48,025 nt of DNA from a virus. Below the pieces are notes generated by a model, which saw only the letters and a program-made list of their open reading frames with translations, did not search any database and was not told where the DNA came from. Below, in pieces: positions 1 through 35,616 of this stretch. The first letter of the stretch is position 1, and each line of letters opens with the position of its first letter. Location: the UHGV virus genome UHGV-0268865, one strand, 5' to 3'. Both the position numbers and the translations under genes were made by a program.

Positions 1-138
1 ATCACCGTTGGAAGCATCACTCTTCCCTATTCCATCAATCGCCGGGGATGGATCGCCCCAAGCGGCGACGTTATCAAAAACCCATTAAAGGCTCAGCGCC
101 TGGCTGAGCTGATGAACAGTAAGAAGGTGATGGCATGA
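1..138 (+). CDS. 3' part of a small early-left ORF; in frame with the 7-codon ORF fragment at the window end (48005..48025) if the sequence is circular
   Basis: Frame 1 is open from position 1 to the TGA at 136-138, and its stop overlaps the next start (ATGA). Confidence 0.3.
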   Translation: MTVGSITLPYSINRRGWIAPSGDVIKNPLKAQRLAELMNSKKVMA

Positions 139-686
139 CTGACTACACCGGAAGCAAAACTCCAGTTGAGCAGAGAAACCTTTGGCAAACGCCGATCCCT
201 CTGTTCGTCGCTCTGGATGCGGAATTCTGCCTGACACTGGACGCGGCAGCCTCAGCTGATAACGCGCTGTGCAACCGCTATATCACAGAAGAGCAGAACA
301 CGCTTGAAAAGCCATGGACTGATTACCTGAGCATTCCCGGCTACGTCTGGCTGAACCCGCCATACAGCGACATCACGCCGTTTGTTCAGAAAGCAGCTGA
401 TGAATCTAAAAACCAGATCGGCACGGTGATGCTGGTCCCTGCAGATACGTCCGTTGGCTGGTTCCGTGAAGCTATCGAGACAGCCAGCGAGGTACGTTTC
501 ATTGTTGGCGGTCGCCTTGCCTTTATCAATCCGGTATCCGGTAAGCCTGTTAGCGGTAACAACAAAGGGTCAATGCTGATTATCTGGCATCCCTACCCGC
601 GCACCCACTGCCAGTTCACGACCGTTGAGCGTGATGCTCTGCTGAGTTTCGGTGCCCGATTGATAGCCAAACGGGAGGCAGCATGA
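135..686 (+). CDS. Phage Dam-like DNA N6-adenine methyltransferase
   Basis: NPPY catalytic motif (LNPPYSD); about 180 aa, the length of the phage N6A-MTase family; RBS AAGGTGA upstream. Confidence 0.75.
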   Translation: MTDYTGSKTPVEQRNLWQTPIPLFVALDAEFCLTLDAAASADNALCNRYITEEQNTLEKPWTDYLSIPGYVWLNPPYSDITPFVQKAADESKNQIGTVMLVPADTSVGWFREAIETASEVRFIVGGRLAFINPVSGKPVSGNNKGSMLIIWHPYPRTHCQFTTVERDALLSFGARLIAKREAA

Positions 687-4390: not shown

Positions 4391-5449
4391 TTAAGCCAAT
4401 TCCTCGATAATAACGATCCCATTCTGACCATCTGCACCAGGATTAACCGGCTTTGAAGGACCATTGGAACATCCAGACGCCCCGCCGCCATATCCACCGC
4501 CATTGTTAGCCGGAGTGTTTATGGCCGGAATAGAGCCCCCTACGCCAAGTTGACTATTTGCTCCGCGCGAAGCGATTGCATATTCAGTTGAAATAGCTGA
4601 TGCACATTCAGACCCCGGGCCACTTATCCCGACAATATTCCATCCGGTAGGGCTGTTCGAGTTTGTGTTCGCCACCGGCTGAAATGGAGGATTAGCCGGA
4701 CCCGCAGGCAGGCCCGCTTTGCCGCCGGGAGCAGAAATCAGCGTTCCTACGGAACTGGTCCCGCCATCTTCCCCATAAAGAGAGGATGCAGTCCCGCCTT
4801 TCCCGCCCAGGCCAATAGTGATCATTACTGAGGTTAATGCTGATACGTCATAAATTCCCTCGGCGTATGCGCCAGCCCCGCCGCCATTGCTAATCGAAAC
4901 CTGACCAGCACCGGTCGCCGGCGCAGCAGAACTACCGCCCCCGGCCCCCAAAATTCTAATCCGCCATTTTGTTGCGCCAGGTGTTTTCGTGAACGTTCCG
5001 GTGCTCGTCACGACACGCGGAACGCCCATAAGGCGACCATTGATCGTGCCATCTGACGAGCCGAGATTTAATAACGCCTGTCTTACCGCCTCACTTCCTT
5101 CGGCTGCAATTTCAGAAAAATTATTTGCGATCTGCAGGCAGGAAAGGAAAGACCCCGCGGTCAACATATTTGCCACAATATCATTCGTTGACCAGACTCT
5201 TGCCGAGGTACCTTCACGCCCTCGCTGCACAGTCATCACATCACCAGACACTGAGGTAACGTGCATGATTTCCGTAATTAATTTAGTCGCGGCATCAACA
5301 ATGGTTAATTTGAAATAGCTTTGACCTGATACGGGCTGAGGAAATAAGCCACCTGTTCCGCTACTCACTGTAATAACAGTCGCAGATGCGCTAATTCCTG
5401 ACGCGAGGACGCTTTTAGCATTGTTATTAGCCAGTAGTTTTAGCGCCAT
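4391..5449 (-). CDS. Tail fibre protein, glycine-rich collagen-like C-terminal region (paralog of 8146..9189)
   Basis: GGGSSAAPATGAGQVSISNGGGAGAYAEG block shared with 8146..9189; GGAGGAG RBS before the ATG at 5449, and the ORF-track start at 5509 has no RBS. Confidence 0.6.
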   Translation of the reverse strand: MALKLLANNNAKSVLASGISASATVITVSSGTGGLFPQPVSGQSYFKLTIVDAATKLITEIMHVTSVSGDVMTVQRGREGTSARVWSTNDIVANMLTAGSFLSCLQIANNFSEIAAEGSEAVRQALLNLGSSDGTINGRLMGVPRVVTSTGTFTKTPGATKWRIRILGAGGGSSAAPATGAGQVSISNGGGAGAYAEGIYDVSALTSVMITIGLGGKGGTASSLYGEDGGTSSVGTLISAPGGKAGLPAGPANPPFQPVANTNSNSPTGWNIVGISGPGSECASAISTEYAIASRGANSQLGVGGSIPAINTPANNGGGYGGGASGCSNGPSKPVNPGADGQNGIVIIEELA

Positions 5450-5546
5450 GACTCCTCCAAAAATGAAATGTAATTCAAGAGAGATTGCGGCTATCGATTT
5501 ATAGCGCAACAGTAACCCACTGATTCACCATCCCTGGCAGCTTTAC

Positions 5547-5834
5547 TTACACTACAACTGCCCCGGAAAACTCATCCAGACCCATGATTTGCGCTTGCGC
5601 CTGGCTGAAAATATCTCCATTAAGCCAGGTTATCGGGAATGAGCGCACATCGCCGTTAGATGACCCATTCACTGTGGTTTCCAGGTATGCGGTCCCCGTT
5701 CCGTCCGGGAAAACCGATACACTGGTAACCGTCATGATTAGCTCCGCGCTCTGGGCCTGAGAGCCAATCACAACGCCGTTTGATACCAGGCTCACCTGAA
5801 CCTCTTTCGTGATTTTAAATGCCATAGTTTTCAC
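5547..5834 (-). CDS. Hypothetical tail-fibre-associated protein
   Basis: Small ORF between the tailspike and the distal fibre. Confidence 0.4.
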   Translation of the reverse strand: MKTMAFKITKEVQVSLVSNGVVIGSQAQSAELIMTVTSVSVFPDGTGTAYLETTVNGSSNGDVRSFPITWLNGDIFSQAQAQIMGLDEFSGAVVV

Positions 5835-23817: not shown

Positions 23818-25647
<1,830 letters not shown>

Positions 25648-25697: not shown

Positions 25698-26486
25698 TTA
25701 CGATAGGCCTGGTATTACTGGTGACCAGGTGCAACGGCAATTGATTTCCTCTCCAGGCATCACCCATTTACCATCCAGATACATTCCCTTGCTTAGCTCA
25801 AACACCTTTCCATCAGCTTTAACGTGGGATGGTCGCGGCTCTTTGCCAGCATGGGAGTGCTTCCATATACCCTGGGTAATGCCTAGCGCCTGCTGTCGCG
25901 CAGACTGAACGACTGAGGTGGCCTTATTGTTCTGATCTCGGGCAATGAACGCCGCACGGCGCCGGGTAATCCCGTATCGCTTCTGGAGTTCATCGGTGAG
26001 ATAGGACAGGTCGCGCCCACGCGCTACCGACCGCATAACCAGACCTTCCACCTCAGTGAAATACTTCTCGGGTATGGATCGGATAAGGCCGACATTCTCA
26101 GCGATGGTCGCCTGAAGAGCGTTATTCATCTGCGAGGTCATCTTGAACTCGACAGTAAACCCCGCATCTTTGAAGGCTGTGGCCAGTGACGCATCCGCGT
26201 TTTTCATGGCGTCGTTAGCGAACCTGTCGGCCAGCTTTTGCGCCATGTCATCAAACCGCCGCTTCCAGCGCTTCACCAGCTTATTCATCGCCTTGCGCAT
26301 AACATCAGCTGGAGATTCATCCATGGCTACAGCAGCGCCGCTGGCCCGATAGTTTGCCGACAGCCAGTAGACAACAGATGCCTGCATTTCCTGCACCTGC
26401 TTATCAAGCTGTCGGCGGTACCATGCTTCGACGCCAGCGTTAGGCCTGATAGGCCGGATAGTTTTTGGCTTTTTCTTTCCGGTCAT
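25698..26486 (-). CDS. Head morphogenesis protein (Mu gpF / SPP1 gp7 family)
   Basis: 262 aa immediately after the portal; characteristic C-terminal NCRCT segment. Confidence 0.7.
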   Translation of the reverse strand: MTGKKKPKTIRPIRPNAGVEAWYRRQLDKQVQEMQASVVYWLSANYRASGAAVAMDESPADVMRKAMNKLVKRWKRRFDDMAQKLADRFANDAMKNADASLATAFKDAGFTVEFKMTSQMNNALQATIAENVGLIRSIPEKYFTEVEGLVMRSVARGRDLSYLTDELQKRYGITRRRAAFIARDQNNKATSVVQSARQQALGITQGIWKHSHAGKEPRPSHVKADGKVFELSKGMYLDGKWVMPGEEINCRCTWSPVIPGLS

Positions 26487-26495
26487 CAGGAATTC

Positions 26496-28442
26496 CTATA
26501 TTGGCTTAAACTCCTCTCCATCTAGACGAATAACCTTGATGGGTAGCGGAGTATCTTTCAGCTTTTGCAAGTCGCCATTTTCGGGGTTGTATTTAATGGA
26601 AAGATGAGCGCGATATTCTGGGTATGAATGTTCTGCACCAGAGGCCTTCAGCTCCGCAAAACGCTTTTGCAGGTCAGGGCTTTCAAGATGCATAACCAAG
26701 GCTCGCCAAGGCTCCTTGCCCATAATTTCGATATCGCCACTAATTTGTGCCTCATAAACCCTAACAGGGTCAGCATCTACCGTGATTGGCTTGTTGCGTG
26801 AGTACATGAGCGTTACATGCATGTCACTCGGGGCGATTAAATTATTTATGCCAAGAGATTCAAGGTGCGAATATATGGCAGACGCCGTTTCTGCATCGGG
26901 CTTAACACTTGCATACCCATTCATCTGATTCGAGTCATTAGCTGTCACGGTGGGCTCTTCCTCTTCGTCGTAGTCGCCTTCGATTTCGAGGTCATCATTC
27001 AGGTCCAGAGAGTGATAGGGCGAATCCGGGTCACCGGCAATTTTTTCACGGACTTCGTTGCCGGATAGCACGCCTGCACTGACATAAGCGGCATCCGTTT
27101 CAGCGTCAAGCTTGCGAATTTCCGCCCGCTCTTTAGCGCTCATTTCGTACAGCGGCTCAAAGTCGAAGGTTATGCCTTCGTCAATGTCCCCGAACTCAGA
27201 TAGCTGAATGATGTCCATCACACGCTTCAGGTTGTCTTTAAAAACAGCCTGCTGCAGGGCATGGATATAGTCATAGAAAACCCGGATTTCGCCTTCAGAA
27301 GATGCATTCAAGCCGCTTGGAGTGATCCCTGCATATTTAACGAGAGGCTCGCTTGATGGTACGCATAGTTGTTCAAAAGCCTGCGCTTGCAACCCATCAA
27401 GGCCAGCTATAGGAGCGCTGACAAACTGCACGGTCTCCGGTTTGTTCGGATCGTTATTGACAGCGAACGCCCCTCGGTTATCTCGGCACTGGTTCATGAT
27501 CTGCAGGCGAGAAATCAGGGTATCCGCTGCGCCACCTGTCAGGATTTGGCTCATATCCGTACTGAAAACCGGTATCGAGTAGGAGTGGATCATGTCGCTG
27601 ACGCTGTCGCGGGTACGAAGCCAGTTATTGACGTAAGGCTCGGCGATCTGTGAAAGAGACAGGCCGCGGAAGTTATACGACGCTTTCAGCAGATCAGGAA
27701 CCTGCCGCGAGACGAAATCAATCATCCGGCTTGCATGTACGGTCCGTCCCATGACAAACCACTGCGTCGGCTTGTAGAAATCCGGGCTCAGCGGGTTGTC
27801 GGAGTTATAAATCCCCGGATAGGTCCAGATAGGCTCAATGACCCTGAACCCCTGCAGGCTGCCTTTCGTGATCTTCTTGTCGCTCATGAAGAGCTTCGAT
27901 TGCAGCTCGTTGTCATCCATCCATGCGGAGATGCCCCGTGGCGAACGAACATCGATATAAATCTGCCCACCGCCGAAGTAGCCGTCATGCTCTGCGGCTT
28001 CTTTAAAGCGCTCGCGCACCTTAAACCGCTTCATGGCCTCTTCGAGCTGTTTTACCCGATCCGCCTTGTCTTCATCGCCGACAGTTTTGAGCTTTATCCA
28101 TTTGCGGGTCATTTCTTCCGCGATGGTGCCAACCATCTTGCGATATTCAGGCTTTTGCGCCAGCGTGGCCAGGTACGGATAGCCCGGGAAGCTATCAAAG
28201 TCACCGTAGCCGTAACCGCCATACGCAGCATTGAGAGCATCGTAAGGCGTGGAGTCCATTGCCAGAATGGCGCTTTTGATAGCCTCGGGGATCACCCCTT
28301 TCGGCGGCTCGTAGCGCTGAAACTCTCTTTTCGGTAATGCGCGGACTTCGGCAACTGCCTCTGGCCTGACCCCGACCTTCGGTGCTTCAGGTTCTTTTGC
28401 CGGCTCAGGCGCGGCGACTTCTTTCTTTTTAAACCACCACAC
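26496..28442 (-). CDS. Portal protein (DUF1073-like) with a C-terminal 2H phosphoesterase domain
   Basis: Portal-like N-terminal 500 aa; the C-terminal 145 aa carry two H-x-T/S-x motifs (MHVTLMY and AHLSIKY) 76 aa apart, as in LigT/CPDase/Acb1 2H enzymes. Confidence 0.7.
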   Translation of the reverse strand: MWWFKKKEVAAPEPAKEPEAPKVGVRPEAVAEVRALPKREFQRYEPPKGVIPEAIKSAILAMDSTPYDALNAAYGGYGYGDFDSFPGYPYLATLAQKPEYRKMVGTIAEEMTRKWIKLKTVGDEDKADRVKQLEEAMKRFKVRERFKEAAEHDGYFGGGQIYIDVRSPRGISAWMDDNELQSKLFMSDKKITKGSLQGFRVIEPIWTYPGIYNSDNPLSPDFYKPTQWFVMGRTVHASRMIDFVSRQVPDLLKASYNFRGLSLSQIAEPYVNNWLRTRDSVSDMIHSYSIPVFSTDMSQILTGGAADTLISRLQIMNQCRDNRGAFAVNNDPNKPETVQFVSAPIAGLDGLQAQAFEQLCVPSSEPLVKYAGITPSGLNASSEGEIRVFYDYIHALQQAVFKDNLKRVMDIIQLSEFGDIDEGITFDFEPLYEMSAKERAEIRKLDAETDAAYVSAGVLSGNEVREKIAGDPDSPYHSLDLNDDLEIEGDYDEEEEPTVTANDSNQMNGYASVKPDAETASAIYSHLESLGINNLIAPSDMHVTLMYSRNKPITVDADPVRVYEAQISGDIEIMGKEPWRALVMHLESPDLQKRFAELKASGAEHSYPEYRAHLSIKYNPENGDLQKLKDTPLPIKVIRLDGEEFKPI

Positions 28443-30119
28443 TTAAATTCTCCTGAGTTGATTCGGGTCGATAACCATCGGCTGCGGGCCGGAAATCAGG
28501 TTGTCGTCGATTGCGTCCATCCAGGTATCGAGGATGTCGTCGTTGTCGTGACTGTCATCAGCGGAGAAAGCAGCGCATTCCGTCATCGCCGTCAGCACCC
28601 ACTCCGTTGAGCCTGCGATCGTGCCGTCCTCGTAGAAGATGCTGGAAAGCTTCTGTCCGTCTTCGGTGTGCGTCGCGGGGACAAACACTTTCCCGGTTTT
28701 GATTTGGGGGATGACGTTAAGGCAGCGAACGAGCTTGTTCTGCCCGGTGCCGCGCGGGATTTCCCTCACCGGGATGGCGAGCTGCCCGGGGGTCTGACTA
28801 CGTTTTTTCAGCGTGGTGATGAGGCCCTGTCCTGCCTGCTTCTCTTCAATGGCCATATGACGCAGCGGCATGACCCGCATGGAGCCAGACAGGCGCCACT
28901 TTTCCCAAACCTCTTCCGCTTTCTTCAGGAGGTCTTCCGGGTCCCACCGTCCGCGAACGACGTCGATGATGTACAAATTCCCGTCCACGCCCATGCCAGC
29001 CAGCGTAAACACGGTGTAATCCAGCCAGTCCTCTACCTTCCCGCTGTTCGTATCGACGTACACGGCACGGTGCGTAAGTTTCGGCAGCGTGGTGTACGTT
29101 CTGAACCAGCTGGTGTCGATAATCCCGCCAGTCAGCGCCATCGGGTTTTGCTGGTATTGCGACAGAAAGGTATAGCGATCCTTTTCCCACAGTTGCAGGA
29201 GGTCGTTGACGTCCTCCATCTGCGGCCAGTAGGACCAGTATCGAACGCCACCAACGACCACAGAATCGGTATCTTTGACCGTTTCCCAGCAAAGCGAGCG
29301 CCATGGCTCATCGAGCGACTGGATGTACTTCTCGTCGATCATGGCCGGTATGGCGACATGGTGAAACGGCACGCCCATTCCGCCGGCAAGCATGAAGCCT
29401 GTTGCGTCGTCGGTGTGCAGACGCTGCTGAATGCTTACAAATGGCGTCGGGTGCTCTTTTGACTTATCGCCGCGGCGTGAGCGAATGGTGTTTACCAGCA
29501 GCGTATTCGCGCTTTTGCGCCGGGACTCGCTGAGCATGTCAACCGGCTTGTTGTAGTCGTCCAGCATTACCATGCCGGAGAACTCTGGTCCGTAGTAGCC
29601 ACCACGACCACCGGTGATCTGCCCGTTGCTTGAGCGCGATACCGTCTGCCCTATAGAGCGCCCTCGTTCGTCCTTTATCTCCCACTCTTCCGCCTGGTTG
29701 ACACCAAACGAGCATGGCCAGAATTCCTGATATTCGCGGCTGGCGATAATGTCGCGGGTACGCCGGCTGTTACGCTTTACCAGCGTGTCAGCAAAAGAGA
29801 TATTCAGGTTGCGAAAGCGTTTAAGCCACTTCTCCTGCACCAGCGCGTTGACATACGCCGGGAAGTGGATGGAGAAGAACTCAGTTTTCGTGCCGCCTGG
29901 CGGGATATTGATAATGAGATTTCGCGGGACAAGTTGCCCGGCAAGCAGATCATCAATTTTCGAAGCCATCAGGCGGTGATGCCAGTTAACCAGCAGCCGA
30001 TCGCCCTGAATCAGTTCGAACCATATTCGGGTGAAGTTCAGGAATGACTTCGTGGACTTTGAACGGATGATCACGCGCTCCGGGAATGACAGGTCATCCC
30101 ATTCGATAATTCCGCTCAT
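28443..30119 (-). CDS. terL: Terminase large subunit
   Basis: 558 aa; ATPase N-terminal region and nuclease C-terminal region typical of Terminase_6-type large subunits; adjacent to the small subunit and portal. Confidence 0.85.
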   Translation of the reverse strand: MSGIIEWDDLSFPERVIIRSKSTKSFLNFTRIWFELIQGDRLLVNWHHRLMASKIDDLLAGQLVPRNLIINIPPGGTKTEFFSIHFPAYVNALVQEKWLKRFRNLNISFADTLVKRNSRRTRDIIASREYQEFWPCSFGVNQAEEWEIKDERGRSIGQTVSRSSNGQITGGRGGYYGPEFSGMVMLDDYNKPVDMLSESRRKSANTLLVNTIRSRRGDKSKEHPTPFVSIQQRLHTDDATGFMLAGGMGVPFHHVAIPAMIDEKYIQSLDEPWRSLCWETVKDTDSVVVGGVRYWSYWPQMEDVNDLLQLWEKDRYTFLSQYQQNPMALTGGIIDTSWFRTYTTLPKLTHRAVYVDTNSGKVEDWLDYTVFTLAGMGVDGNLYIIDVVRGRWDPEDLLKKAEEVWEKWRLSGSMRVMPLRHMAIEEKQAGQGLITTLKKRSQTPGQLAIPVREIPRGTGQNKLVRCLNVIPQIKTGKVFVPATHTEDGQKLSSIFYEDGTIAGSTEWVLTAMTECAAFSADDSHDNDDILDTWMDAIDDNLISGPQPMVIDPNQLRRI

Positions 30120-34320: not shown

Positions 34321-34964
34321 GCGGCCTCCTGATGGCGTGCTCGGCGCTTCTCCAGCGCGCGAGCTCTGCGGGTGAATATGGATTTGATGCGCTGCAGGTA
34401 GGGAATATCGAACCGGCGCGGCTCGTTATCAGCCTCAAGGCGCTCTACGCGGTCCAGGCCAATACGTTCAATCAGGTGAATGCGGTACTCAACCGCGTTC
34501 CCGCTCAACTGCCGGTTGCAGCGGGTACAGGCGGAGTGGACATTGAATACGTTGAACTTCAGGTGCGACGCCGCGCCGCGGGAACGGTAATGGCTGGCAT
34601 CAATGGCGCTGCCGGTCAGGTAGTTGCTCTTCCCGACGAGTGGATTGCCGCAACTGGCGCAGGGCTTACCTTCATCACGAATGCGAATGTACCGGTTAAA
34701 GGCTGACTGAGCCTCTTTATCCCATTGGGCCTTTGTCTTGAATGACTCACGCTTAGCGCGGCGACGCTGGCTCCCCTCTTTCTCGGATTCGCGCAGGCGC
34801 TTCACCGCCCTGGCTTTCGCCGCTTCCCGGGCTTTTGCTGTCTGTTTTTTGCCGATCGCGCTGGCGCATTCAAAACTGCATACCACCTGCCCTTCCCGGG
34901 CAGGATGGAACCATTCGCGGCAGTGGGCGCATTTACGACGTGCTGGTTTACGCATGCTCACCAC
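34317..34964 (-). CDS. ninG: NinG (Rap) recombination protein
   Basis: Cys clusters ([23 protein letters not shown]) and a basic C-terminus typical of NinG. Confidence 0.8.
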
Positions 34965-35616
34965 CCTGGATCTGCACCAAGGTCAGGCGGCCGCAGAATA
35001 CAGCCCCGGTGTCGATATACATCTGATTGGCGTACTGGCTTGGTTGATGTGTCGGGGTATGACCAAAAATAAACAGGTCTGCACCGGATATTTCATTCAC
35101 AATCCCATCCTGAGCCGCGCTCACTCGCTCACGATTCCAGATCACCTGTTCTGCATCGACGGGCTTGTCATACGCATATTGGTTATGCGGGTAGTCCGCA
35201 TGGCATATCACCACCTTCTTACCCTCGGTCATTACCTCGATGATGAGTGGCAAACCAGCAACCAAATGGGCCAACGCGATAGCCAGGCGTTCTTTGTCGT
35301 AGTCAAGGTTAAAGAACCATCCGCCACCGTTAGCGAGCCAGTGATTCACGTTCCCGGAGGAGGATAGTCCGTCGAGCATCATCTGCTCATGGTTTCCGCG
35401 AACGGCCATAAACCAGGGCATTGTGATTAGCTCAAGGCATTCGACGTTTTCCGCCCCGCGATCGATAAGGTCACCTACCGAGATCAGCAGGTCACACAAC
35501 GGGTCAAAACGGACCCTTTCCAGCTCGTTCATCAGCAGCGTATGGCACCCATGAAGATCGCCAACAACCCAGATGTTGCGCCAGATAGCTCCATTAATGC
35601 TTTGGTAAAGGCTCAT
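34948..35616 (-). CDS. Ser/Thr protein phosphatase (lambda NinI / PP-lambda family)
   Basis: GDLHGC, GDLIDRG and GNHE metallophosphatase motifs. Confidence 0.85.

Follow-up and report, generated by a model that had tools for sequence, protein, structure and literature searches.

The window analysed here, i.e., the whole stretch of 48,025 nucleotides of UHGV virus genome UHGV-0268865, contains a minus-strand gene in which a phage portal protein continues in frame into a domain that is assigned below to the Acb1 family of 2H phosphoesterases. The gene occupies 26496..28442 (-) and consists of 648 codons followed by the stop codon TAG (26496..26498), as delimited by the list of open reading frames (ORFs), by two Pfam domains and by phrog_146. 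It is one frame of 648 amino acids with zero internal stops or frameshifts, and its GTG start abuts the stop codon of the terminase gene. The portal core (Phage_portal_3/DUF1073) spans residues 89-451 (27090..28178 (-); Pfam 2.1e-86), the PHROGs family phrog_146, 'portal protein', matches the whole 648-residue protein at 4.6e-133, and the E217 portal gp19 matches the portal body at 3e-33. With the family match, the large terminase gene (terL) lying directly upstream and the body being modelled confidently, the protein belongs to the Phage_portal_3/DUF1073 portals.

The portal body is followed by an acidic flexible linker, DPDSPYHSLDLNDDLEIEGDYDEEEEPTVTANDSNQMN, at residues ~471-508 (26919..27032 (-)), which is delimited by the profile of the predicted local distance difference test (pLDDT): in the full-length AlphaFold2 (AF2) model the portal body is confident, residues 483-505 have pLDDT <50 and the C-terminal domain has pLDDT 94-98. 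The linker is 57-61% identical in loci that are ~75% identical overall. The Acb1-family 2H phosphodiesterase domain, delimited by Pfam, phmmer, AF2 and Foldseek, then occupies residues 509-648 (26499..26918 (-)), with the fold beginning at ~G509 (window 26918). It is noted that an earlier reading made from the sequence alone, without database searches (the sequence-only reading), had estimated this portal to be about 150 amino acids longer than its kind, and the estimate is borne out, the portal of Klebsiella phage RCIP0114 having 506 amino acids and most of the 120 closest portal clusters 503-518 amino acids, with a few shorter, versus 648 here.

The identity of the domain is given concordantly by sequence and by structure comparison. 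Pfam PF23474 (Acb1) matches residues 510-637 at 8.2e-24 with 84.4 bits, the cut-off being 27 bits, which lies well outside the range of chance, and for the domain alone the score is 89.1 bits, with profile positions 4-129 of 144 covered. Comparison of the domain with the Acb1 of Erwinia phage FBB1 by phmmer gave 1.9e-9 with both His motifs aligned, and a profile of 73 homologues reached FBB1 Acb1 at 3.5e-22 and the enzyme of Burkholderia phage BCSR5 at 1.6e-17. The AF2 model of residues 496-648 has a pLDDT of 94.1 and the beta-alpha-beta arrangement. In the Foldseek comparison with the PDB the Acb1 structures of BCSR5 and FBB1 take the five top places (E 3e-9 to 3e-8, template modelling (TM) score 0.72-0.79). 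Below them rank Usb1, plant CPDase, LigT and the poxvirus cyclic GMP-AMP (cGAMP) phosphodiesterase at E ~1.5e-3 or weaker, with TM 0.44-0.66 for LigT, Usb1 and CPDase and, for the LigT-type structures, TM 0.44-0.48 and E ~2e-3 or weaker. The extra C-terminal 2H phosphoesterase domain that the sequence-only reading had proposed is thus found by Pfam, by the PDB sequence search, by AF2 and by Foldseek alike, and of the two names in its label 'Acb1/LigT-like' it is Acb1 that lies closest among the 2H enzymes.

The two catalytic motifs are M-H542-V-T544-LMY (H542-V-T544 at 26811..26819 (-)), equivalent to T4 Acb1 H44/T46, and A-H613-L-S615-IKY (H613-L-S615 at 26598..26606 (-)), equivalent to T4 Acb1 H113/T115. 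Both motifs had been noticed before as MHVTLMY and AHLSIKY, with a spacing of 76 residues; their presence stands, while the spacing has to be corrected, the two histidines being 71 residues apart. In the alignment with T4 57B, H44/T46/H113/T115 correspond to H542/T544/H613/S615, with the second Thr replaced by Ser, which is permitted among 2H enzymes. The positions of H542, T544 and H613 are invariant across the 73 homologues, and of the four aromatic base-stacking positions of T4 Acb1 two, Y12 (Y510) and F107 (Y607), are kept. Judged by sequence and predicted fold, then, the domain belongs to the Acb1 family and has its catalytic tetrad complete, and it is very probably an active 2H phosphodiesterase.

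The continuity between the portal and the domain, which had been read from this one ORF, is seen in other assemblies as well. In IMG/VR, which was scanned for the Acb1 domain, 21 distinct loci encode it. In all 20 full-length loci the domain is in frame in the portal ORF, which has 648-651 amino acids (598 in the most distant one), and the portal stop codon is missing; in the 21st, L017, the contig ends upstream and the gene is cut. One metagenome fragment in the ENA also crosses the portal/domain junction. In the loci L021 and L022 the portal body is 74-76% and the domain 79-80% identical to those of the window, with no stop or frameshift, and the same holds for versions that are 76-78% and 49% identical in the domain. 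The ratio of nonsynonymous to synonymous substitution rates (dN/dS) of the domain, calculated against L021 and L022, is 0.07-0.08, and from such comparisons of coding sequences the fusion is under purifying selection. A frameshift or assembly artefact is ruled out by the 20 concordant in-frame full-length loci together with the ENA fragment.

The domain lies in an accessory cassette of 514 nucleotides (26445..26958 (-)), which stands in place of 32 nucleotides of Klebsiella phage RCIP0114 and is delimited by its breakpoints and by its GC content. It contains the Acb1 domain, the stop codon, a 9-nucleotide spacer and a new 5' end of the MuF gene. In the pairwise alignment with RCIP0114 the homology breaks at 26958 and resumes at 26444, and the GC content is 46.7% in the cassette, versus 53.6% in the portal body and 54.1% in MuF. 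The portal body is 88-92% identical in nucleotides to those of the nearest sequenced phages (Klebsiella phages RCIP0114, KP12, ST15-VIM1phi2.1 and others), with the megablast matches to them stopping at query 461 (window 26956). The start of the module had previously been placed at 26925, which is slightly inside it, the fold starting at ~26918 and the foreign DNA at ~26958.

Portals of this kind mostly lack the domain. Neither the RCIP0114 portal nor the E. coli prophage relatives of the portal have it, and of the 120 portal clusters that are closest in a collection of 5.8 billion proteins 119 are recorded without it, the sole Acb1-bearing one being an incomplete protein of 549 amino acids. 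The start of MuF in RCIP0114 (MMTSKSK...) is embedded in the last part of the portal gene, in a different frame. Within the portal linker of the window, in another frame, a relic ORF of 17 codons and a stop, MMTSKSKATTTKRKSPP, is present at 26945..26998 (-), corresponding to the ancestral MuF start. Because this relic of the old MuF start is kept while the cassette supplies the new MuF 5' end, the arrangement without Acb1 would be the ancestral one and the cassette a derived insertion. Moreover, in the cassette-carrying phages the domain is 99-100% identical while the portal bodies are 89-95% identical, and versus L010 the synonymous divergence (dS) is 0.067 in the domain and 0.29 in the body; since the domain is far more alike than the portal bodies in both identity and dS, the module would have spread recently by recombination. 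L021 has an additional ORF of 184 amino acids between MuF and the head protease (5255..5809 (+)). It seems that accessory genes settle preferentially at the gene boundaries of the head module.

At the cassette boundary (26946..26963 (-)) there is also an in-frame GTG codon (V499, 26946..26948), 6 nucleotides downstream of GAGGAAGAG, and this codon is kept in L021 and L022. The NCBI protein P0001 (Cronobacter sakazakii, 152 amino acids, 'hypothetical protein') has been annotated from the equivalent GTG codon, and its sequence equals that of the L022 fusion in the C-terminal part. P0001 was not counted as a free-standing Acb1 gene, its sequence being the L022 fusion read from the internal GTG. 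The GTG at V499 could serve to initiate a free Acb1 internally, or it could be the footprint of the original start of the cassette; the idea of internal initiation is a possible lead only, as codons for acidic residues resemble a Shine-Dalgarno sequence anyway.

The gene is part of a minus-strand late head operon comprising the terminase, the portal-Acb1, MuF, a DUF2213 protease, a minor head protein and the major capsid protein. Its upstream neighbour encodes the large terminase subunit (28443..30119 (-); phrog_38, 7.6e-100) and its downstream neighbour a MuF-like head morphogenesis protein of 262 amino acids (25698..26486 (-); Phage_Mu_F 4.6e-15, phrog_324). Further downstream is the gene of a head maturation protease/scaffold of 605 amino acids (23818..25635 (-); Pfam, phrog_2229), with DUF2213 at residues 231-399. 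This protease has at its N-terminus an additional Alt/VIP2-type ADP-ribosyltransferase (ART) domain (residues 44-193, 2.8e-18) with R / S-T-S / E-x-E-like motifs. The head protease of RCIP0114 has 389 amino acids and is without the ART domain, and among the 19 Acb1-portal loci with a readable protease gene the ART is present in 4 (L004, L008, L015 and L017). A linkage of the ART and Acb1 modules is ruled out by this count. Since RCIP0114 lacks the ART and so few loci have both, the two effector modules are independent additions to head-assembly proteins.

As regards the phage itself, the window encodes an integrase, a CI-like S24 repressor, CII, replication protein P, NinG, a Q antiterminator, RecT/YqaJ and Dam, as well as a holin, an endolysin and a beta-helix tail spike, and it is a lambdoid temperate phage. 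In its structural genes it is similar to prophages of Klebsiella pneumoniae, and the assignment to a Klebsiella-type phage rests on the similarity to Klebsiella phages. Two ordinary lambdoid accessory genes are also present, one for a calcineurin-like metallophosphoesterase in the nin region beside NinG (34948..35616 (-)) and one for a phage Dam methyltransferase near the integrase end (135..686 (+)).

The same domain occurs in other proteins. As a word-indexed protein search with the domain gave 3 matches, 1.84 billion cluster representatives were searched exhaustively with HMMER instead, giving 807 relatives (E <=1e-3), most of which are free proteins of 140-190 amino acids. According to Pfam scans of 20 of the longer matches, the fusion partners are a Phage_portal_3 portal (four cases), DarA_N (two cases) and, in one case each, an HK97-type portal together with an inorganic pyrophosphatase (InPase), MuF, SLT with ART-PolyVal in a polyvalent protein of 1954 amino acids, an ADP-ribosyltransferase, GNAT, and the Thoeris inhibitor Tad5, the last being an anti-defence context. 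The fusions to Tad5, ADP-ribosyltransferases, GNAT, DarA_N, the HK97-type portal and the polyvalent protein are the proteins P0258, P0250, P0145, P0225, P0125, P0128 and P0268. In the reference genomes (one per species), scanned with the domain and with an alignment of 4 sequences, no confirmed relative was found.

The fusion is found in isolated phages too. Vibrio phage vB_VpM-PP270 has it in a portal coding sequence of 557 amino acids. In Aminobacter phage Erebus the domain matches under a coding sequence annotated 'portal protein', so that this phage probably carries the fusion. In the portal gp3 of cyanophage Pam3 (PDB 8HDS, 621 amino acids), residues 482-599 form an Acb1-like domain that contains LHVT and SHIS and has a profile E-value of 1.3e-10. 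A free Acb1-like protein of Yersinia phage YerA41, YerA41_084 (L025 2444..2941), is annotated 'structural protein'. Virion proteomics of YerA41 list 63 particle-associated proteins, with polymerases among them, and because of this inclusive list the label is a weak hint at packaging.

Starting from what is observed, namely the domain identity, the predicted fold, the catalytic residues, the in-frame conservation, the purifying selection and the cassette structure, we infer an enzymatic activity, a substrate, a location in the virion, a cleavage and an ejection as follows. In the reading that we prefer and regard as reasonably probable, the gene product is a two-module portal-Acb1 protein that originated from a grafted mobile cassette, is likely active on signals of the type that serves the antiphage signalling system based on cyclic oligonucleotides (CBASS), and is built into the head. 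An Acb1-family 2H phosphodiesterase of ~140 amino acids would have been grafted onto the acidic disordered tail of a DUF1073-type portal when, in some of the Klebsiella-type lambdoid temperate myophages, recombination put the 514-nucleotide lower-GC cassette between the last portal codons and MuF. The C-termini of portal proteins (crown and barrel) point into the capsid interior, and because of this orientation 12 copies of the enzyme would be inside the head of each virion, built in on flexible acidic tethers. The catalysis by H542/T544 and H613/S615 would be metal-independent and would open 3'-5' cyclic oligonucleotides via a 2',3'-cyclic phosphate intermediate, as in T4/FBB1 Acb1. As to the substrate, cyclic-oligonucleotide immune signals are the probable one, which is less secure than the activity itself. 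The Acb1 enzymes are reported to open 3'-5' cyclic di- and trinucleotides with a His-based catalysis that needs no metal, and to rescue phage from CBASS (PMC9117128).

Two routes of action, which are not mutually exclusive, are possible. In the first one, the domain would be made together with the late structural proteins and hence be present when virion assembly triggers CBASS, late virion assembly being the trigger that has been reported (10.1101/2023.05.21.541620). In the second one, the head maturation protease would cut the linker, and the domain would be ejected together with the DNA, being a counter-defence enzyme made in advance; the ART on the neighbouring protease/scaffold would leave by the same route as the cleaved Acb1. 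Proteins packaged in the head and then ejected are represented by T4 Alt and the P1 Dar proteins. Moreover, the occurrence of the same domain on several unrelated head-internal carriers supports this packaging logic, and so does the second effector of this phage, the ART on the head protease. Nevertheless, an actual ejection into the next host is a step that we consider possible while leaning somewhat against it.

Several points weigh against the reading we prefer. The first group concerns the substrate pocket. W74, E141 and the C-terminal lid (residues 145-152, with W147) of T4 Acb1 have been tied to substrate binding (Hobbs et al., PMC9117128). In the window, W74 aligns with Met574, with a conserved Trp 5 residues further on, and E141, which contacts the adenine N6, is replaced by Lys646 (26505..26507 (-), from the alignment with T4 57B); the protein ends at I648, equivalent to T4 L143, so that the lid is absent. 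The portal-fused relatives L021, L022 and L024 have Lys at the E141 position as well, and most of the 73 closest family representatives terminate 0-4 residues from the same C-terminal point. Because of these three differences the substrate range cannot be assumed to be that of T4 Acb1, and the substrate may differ from 3'3'-cGAMP or cAAA. The second group concerns the virion. A portal-tethered domain cannot exit the capsid, the ejection thus requiring a cleavage, which is a purely proposed step, and twelve copies per cell are a small dose. The cryo-electron microscopy paper on Pam3 describes canonical portal parts only and leaves the domain unmentioned; in the list of 50 Foldseek matches of the domain model chain 8HDS does not occur, and the Pam3 domain appears to be missing from the deposited model, being either unresolved or removed in mature virions. 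In addition, we found in the literature no report on activity, substrate or virion proteomics for any portal-fused Acb1.

A more specific version of the preferred reading takes the altered pocket into account: the lidless Lys646 Acb1, tethered to the portal on the side of the capsid interior, would be a preloaded counter-defence dose, clipped off by the DUF2213 protease or made in parallel in free form from the conserved GTG, and ejected with the DNA and the ART; its pocket could give it a substrate range of its own, for instance signals without adenine or 2'-5'-linked signals. We consider this version rather improbable as a whole.

The alternative that survives best, although we deem it unlikely on balance, is that the protein acts solely as a late cytoplasmic enzyme: the fusion would secure co-expression with the structural genes that trigger CBASS, and the domain would never be ejected, acting on the unassembled portal or being irrelevant in the capsid. 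This explanation is consistent with the portal gene lying downstream of the Q antiterminator, within the late operon, and with the reported triggering of CBASS at late virion assembly (10.1101/2023.05.21.541620), and also with the uncleaved portal-tethered domain being stuck in the capsid and with the Pam3 virion paper describing no such domain on the portal. However, the domain is found repeatedly on unrelated head-internal carriers (two portal families, DarA_N, MuF and polyvalent proteins), which co-expression alone does not require, and in the window an Alt-like ART is present on the head protease, its T4 homologue being a classic injected protein (PMC5512222).

A much less probable alternative is that the domain is an enzyme of RNA-end processing or repair, LigT-like or Usb1-like, which would mend tRNA or mRNA cut by anticodon nucleases or would attack host RNA; RNA repair or processing had also been offered by the sequence-only reading as the other possible role, and the results disfavour it. 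The C-terminal tail matches phrog_755 at 1e-29, a family labelled 'RNA ligase', and many GenBank homologues carry the same annotation; the 2H chemistry is common to both kinds of enzyme, a role as RNase is one of the options given by Iyer et al. in 2017 (PMC5512222), and the loss of the Acb1 lid and of E141 leaves room for another substrate. By contrast, the closest sequences and structures are those of Acb1 (E ~1e-8, TM 0.72-0.79) rather than those of LigT, Usb1 or CPDase (E ~2e-3 or weaker, TM 0.44-0.66). The 'RNA ligase' label is the historical label of T4 57B, which is still annotated so in RefSeq and yet is the founding Acb1 (PMC9117128). Moreover, neither an RNA ligase nor a polynucleotide kinase was found among the 37 ORFs of the window that were scanned with Pfam, and Iyer et al. 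never saw these 2H versions together with RNA ligases (PMC5512222). As for the least probable alternative, that the fusion stems from faulty sequencing or assembly, or from the recent reading-through into a separate gene downstream, and that the true product is a free Acb1 of ~150 amino acids, the 152-residue P0001 that starts at the conserved GTG of L022 and the Shine-Dalgarno-like GAGGAAGAG 6 nucleotides upstream of the GTG speak for it, whereas the 20 of 20 full-length assemblies that are in frame and lack the portal stop codon, diverged versions with many substitutions included, make it extremely improbable, and an internal start would merely add a free form and leave the fusion in place.

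If the portal-Acb1 is active and packaged, then counter-defence enzymes, i.e., the Acb1 on the portal and the ART on the head protease, would enter the cell ahead of phage gene expression. The principle known from T4 Alt and P1 Dar would then also apply to signalling of the CBASS type and to Klebsiella phages that are temperate, a point of importance for the host range in phage therapy. If the more specific version with the preloaded dose is true, it would be the first demonstration of a portal protein delivering an anti-signalling enzyme. The near-isogenic phages with and without the 514-nucleotide cassette, and with and without the ART module, form a natural experiment that is suited to testing the prediction published in 2017 and 2022 that is described next.

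It was proposed by Iyer, Burroughs, Anand, de Souza and Aravind (2017, PMC5512222) that 2H domains fused to MuF or to the portal are RNases or degraders of defence-system nucleotides, and later by Iyer et al. (2022, PMC9503650) that the 2H-portal/MuF fusions suggest packaging in the head and injection, countering SMODS (CBASS), cyclic-mononucleotide and CRISPR signalling. Both the portal-2H fusion and, as a prediction, the hypothesis of packaging and counter-signalling have thus appeared in print before, and the domain has its name in Pfam. In the literature we came across no experiment that tests a portal-fused Acb1; portal fusions go unmentioned in the EVADES, sponge and AntiDefenseFinder papers, and the paper on the Pakpunavirus P7-1 has nothing on portal extensions.

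Compared with the known Acb1 enzymes (T4 57B; FBB1, PDB 7T26/7T27; BCSR5, PDB 9Q2G/9Q2Y; PF23474), the domain has the family, the predicted 2H fold and the tetrad in common and is likewise phage-encoded. Unlike these free proteins of ~150 amino acids, it is the C-terminal domain of a 648-residue portal. Its identity to FBB1 and T4 Acb1 is ~24-27%, and it departs from T4 Acb1 in having no lid (145-152, W147), Lys646 for E141 and Met for W74. With LigT, the 2',3'-cyclic nucleotide phosphodiesterases and Usb1 it shares the 2H fold and the His-x-Thr/Ser chemistry, while it differs from LigT, CPDase and Usb1 in its sequence family, in the much weaker structural match and in having no RNA ligase partner among the 37 ORFs scanned. 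The Pam3 portal gp3 is alike in bearing a C-terminal Acb1-like domain on a myophage portal, although the two portal bodies are only distantly related (1.8e-15).

As in T4 Alt, the T4 internal proteins and P1 DarA/Hdf, an enzyme or anti-defence cargo would be carried in the capsid, a likeness proposed here from sequence; the link to P1 DarA and T4 Alt lies in the domain homologues on DarA_N and in the Alt-like ART on the neighbouring protease. In the T4 and P1 cases the cargos are proteins of their own and are targeted to the prohead, whereas here the enzyme is covalent to the capsid-resident portal and its release would need proteolysis. Finally, the fusion is alike to the class described in the computational surveys of Iyer et al. 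(2017, 2022), a 2H effector being attached covalently to a head-packaged anchor in a terminase-portal phage. Neither this lineage of Klebsiella type nor the limits of the cassette, the variant with Lys646 and no lid or its pairing with the ART-protease are described in these surveys, so that what is added here to the known class is modestly new, namely the delimited cassette, the lidless Lys646 clade and its co-occurrence with the ART-protease fusion.

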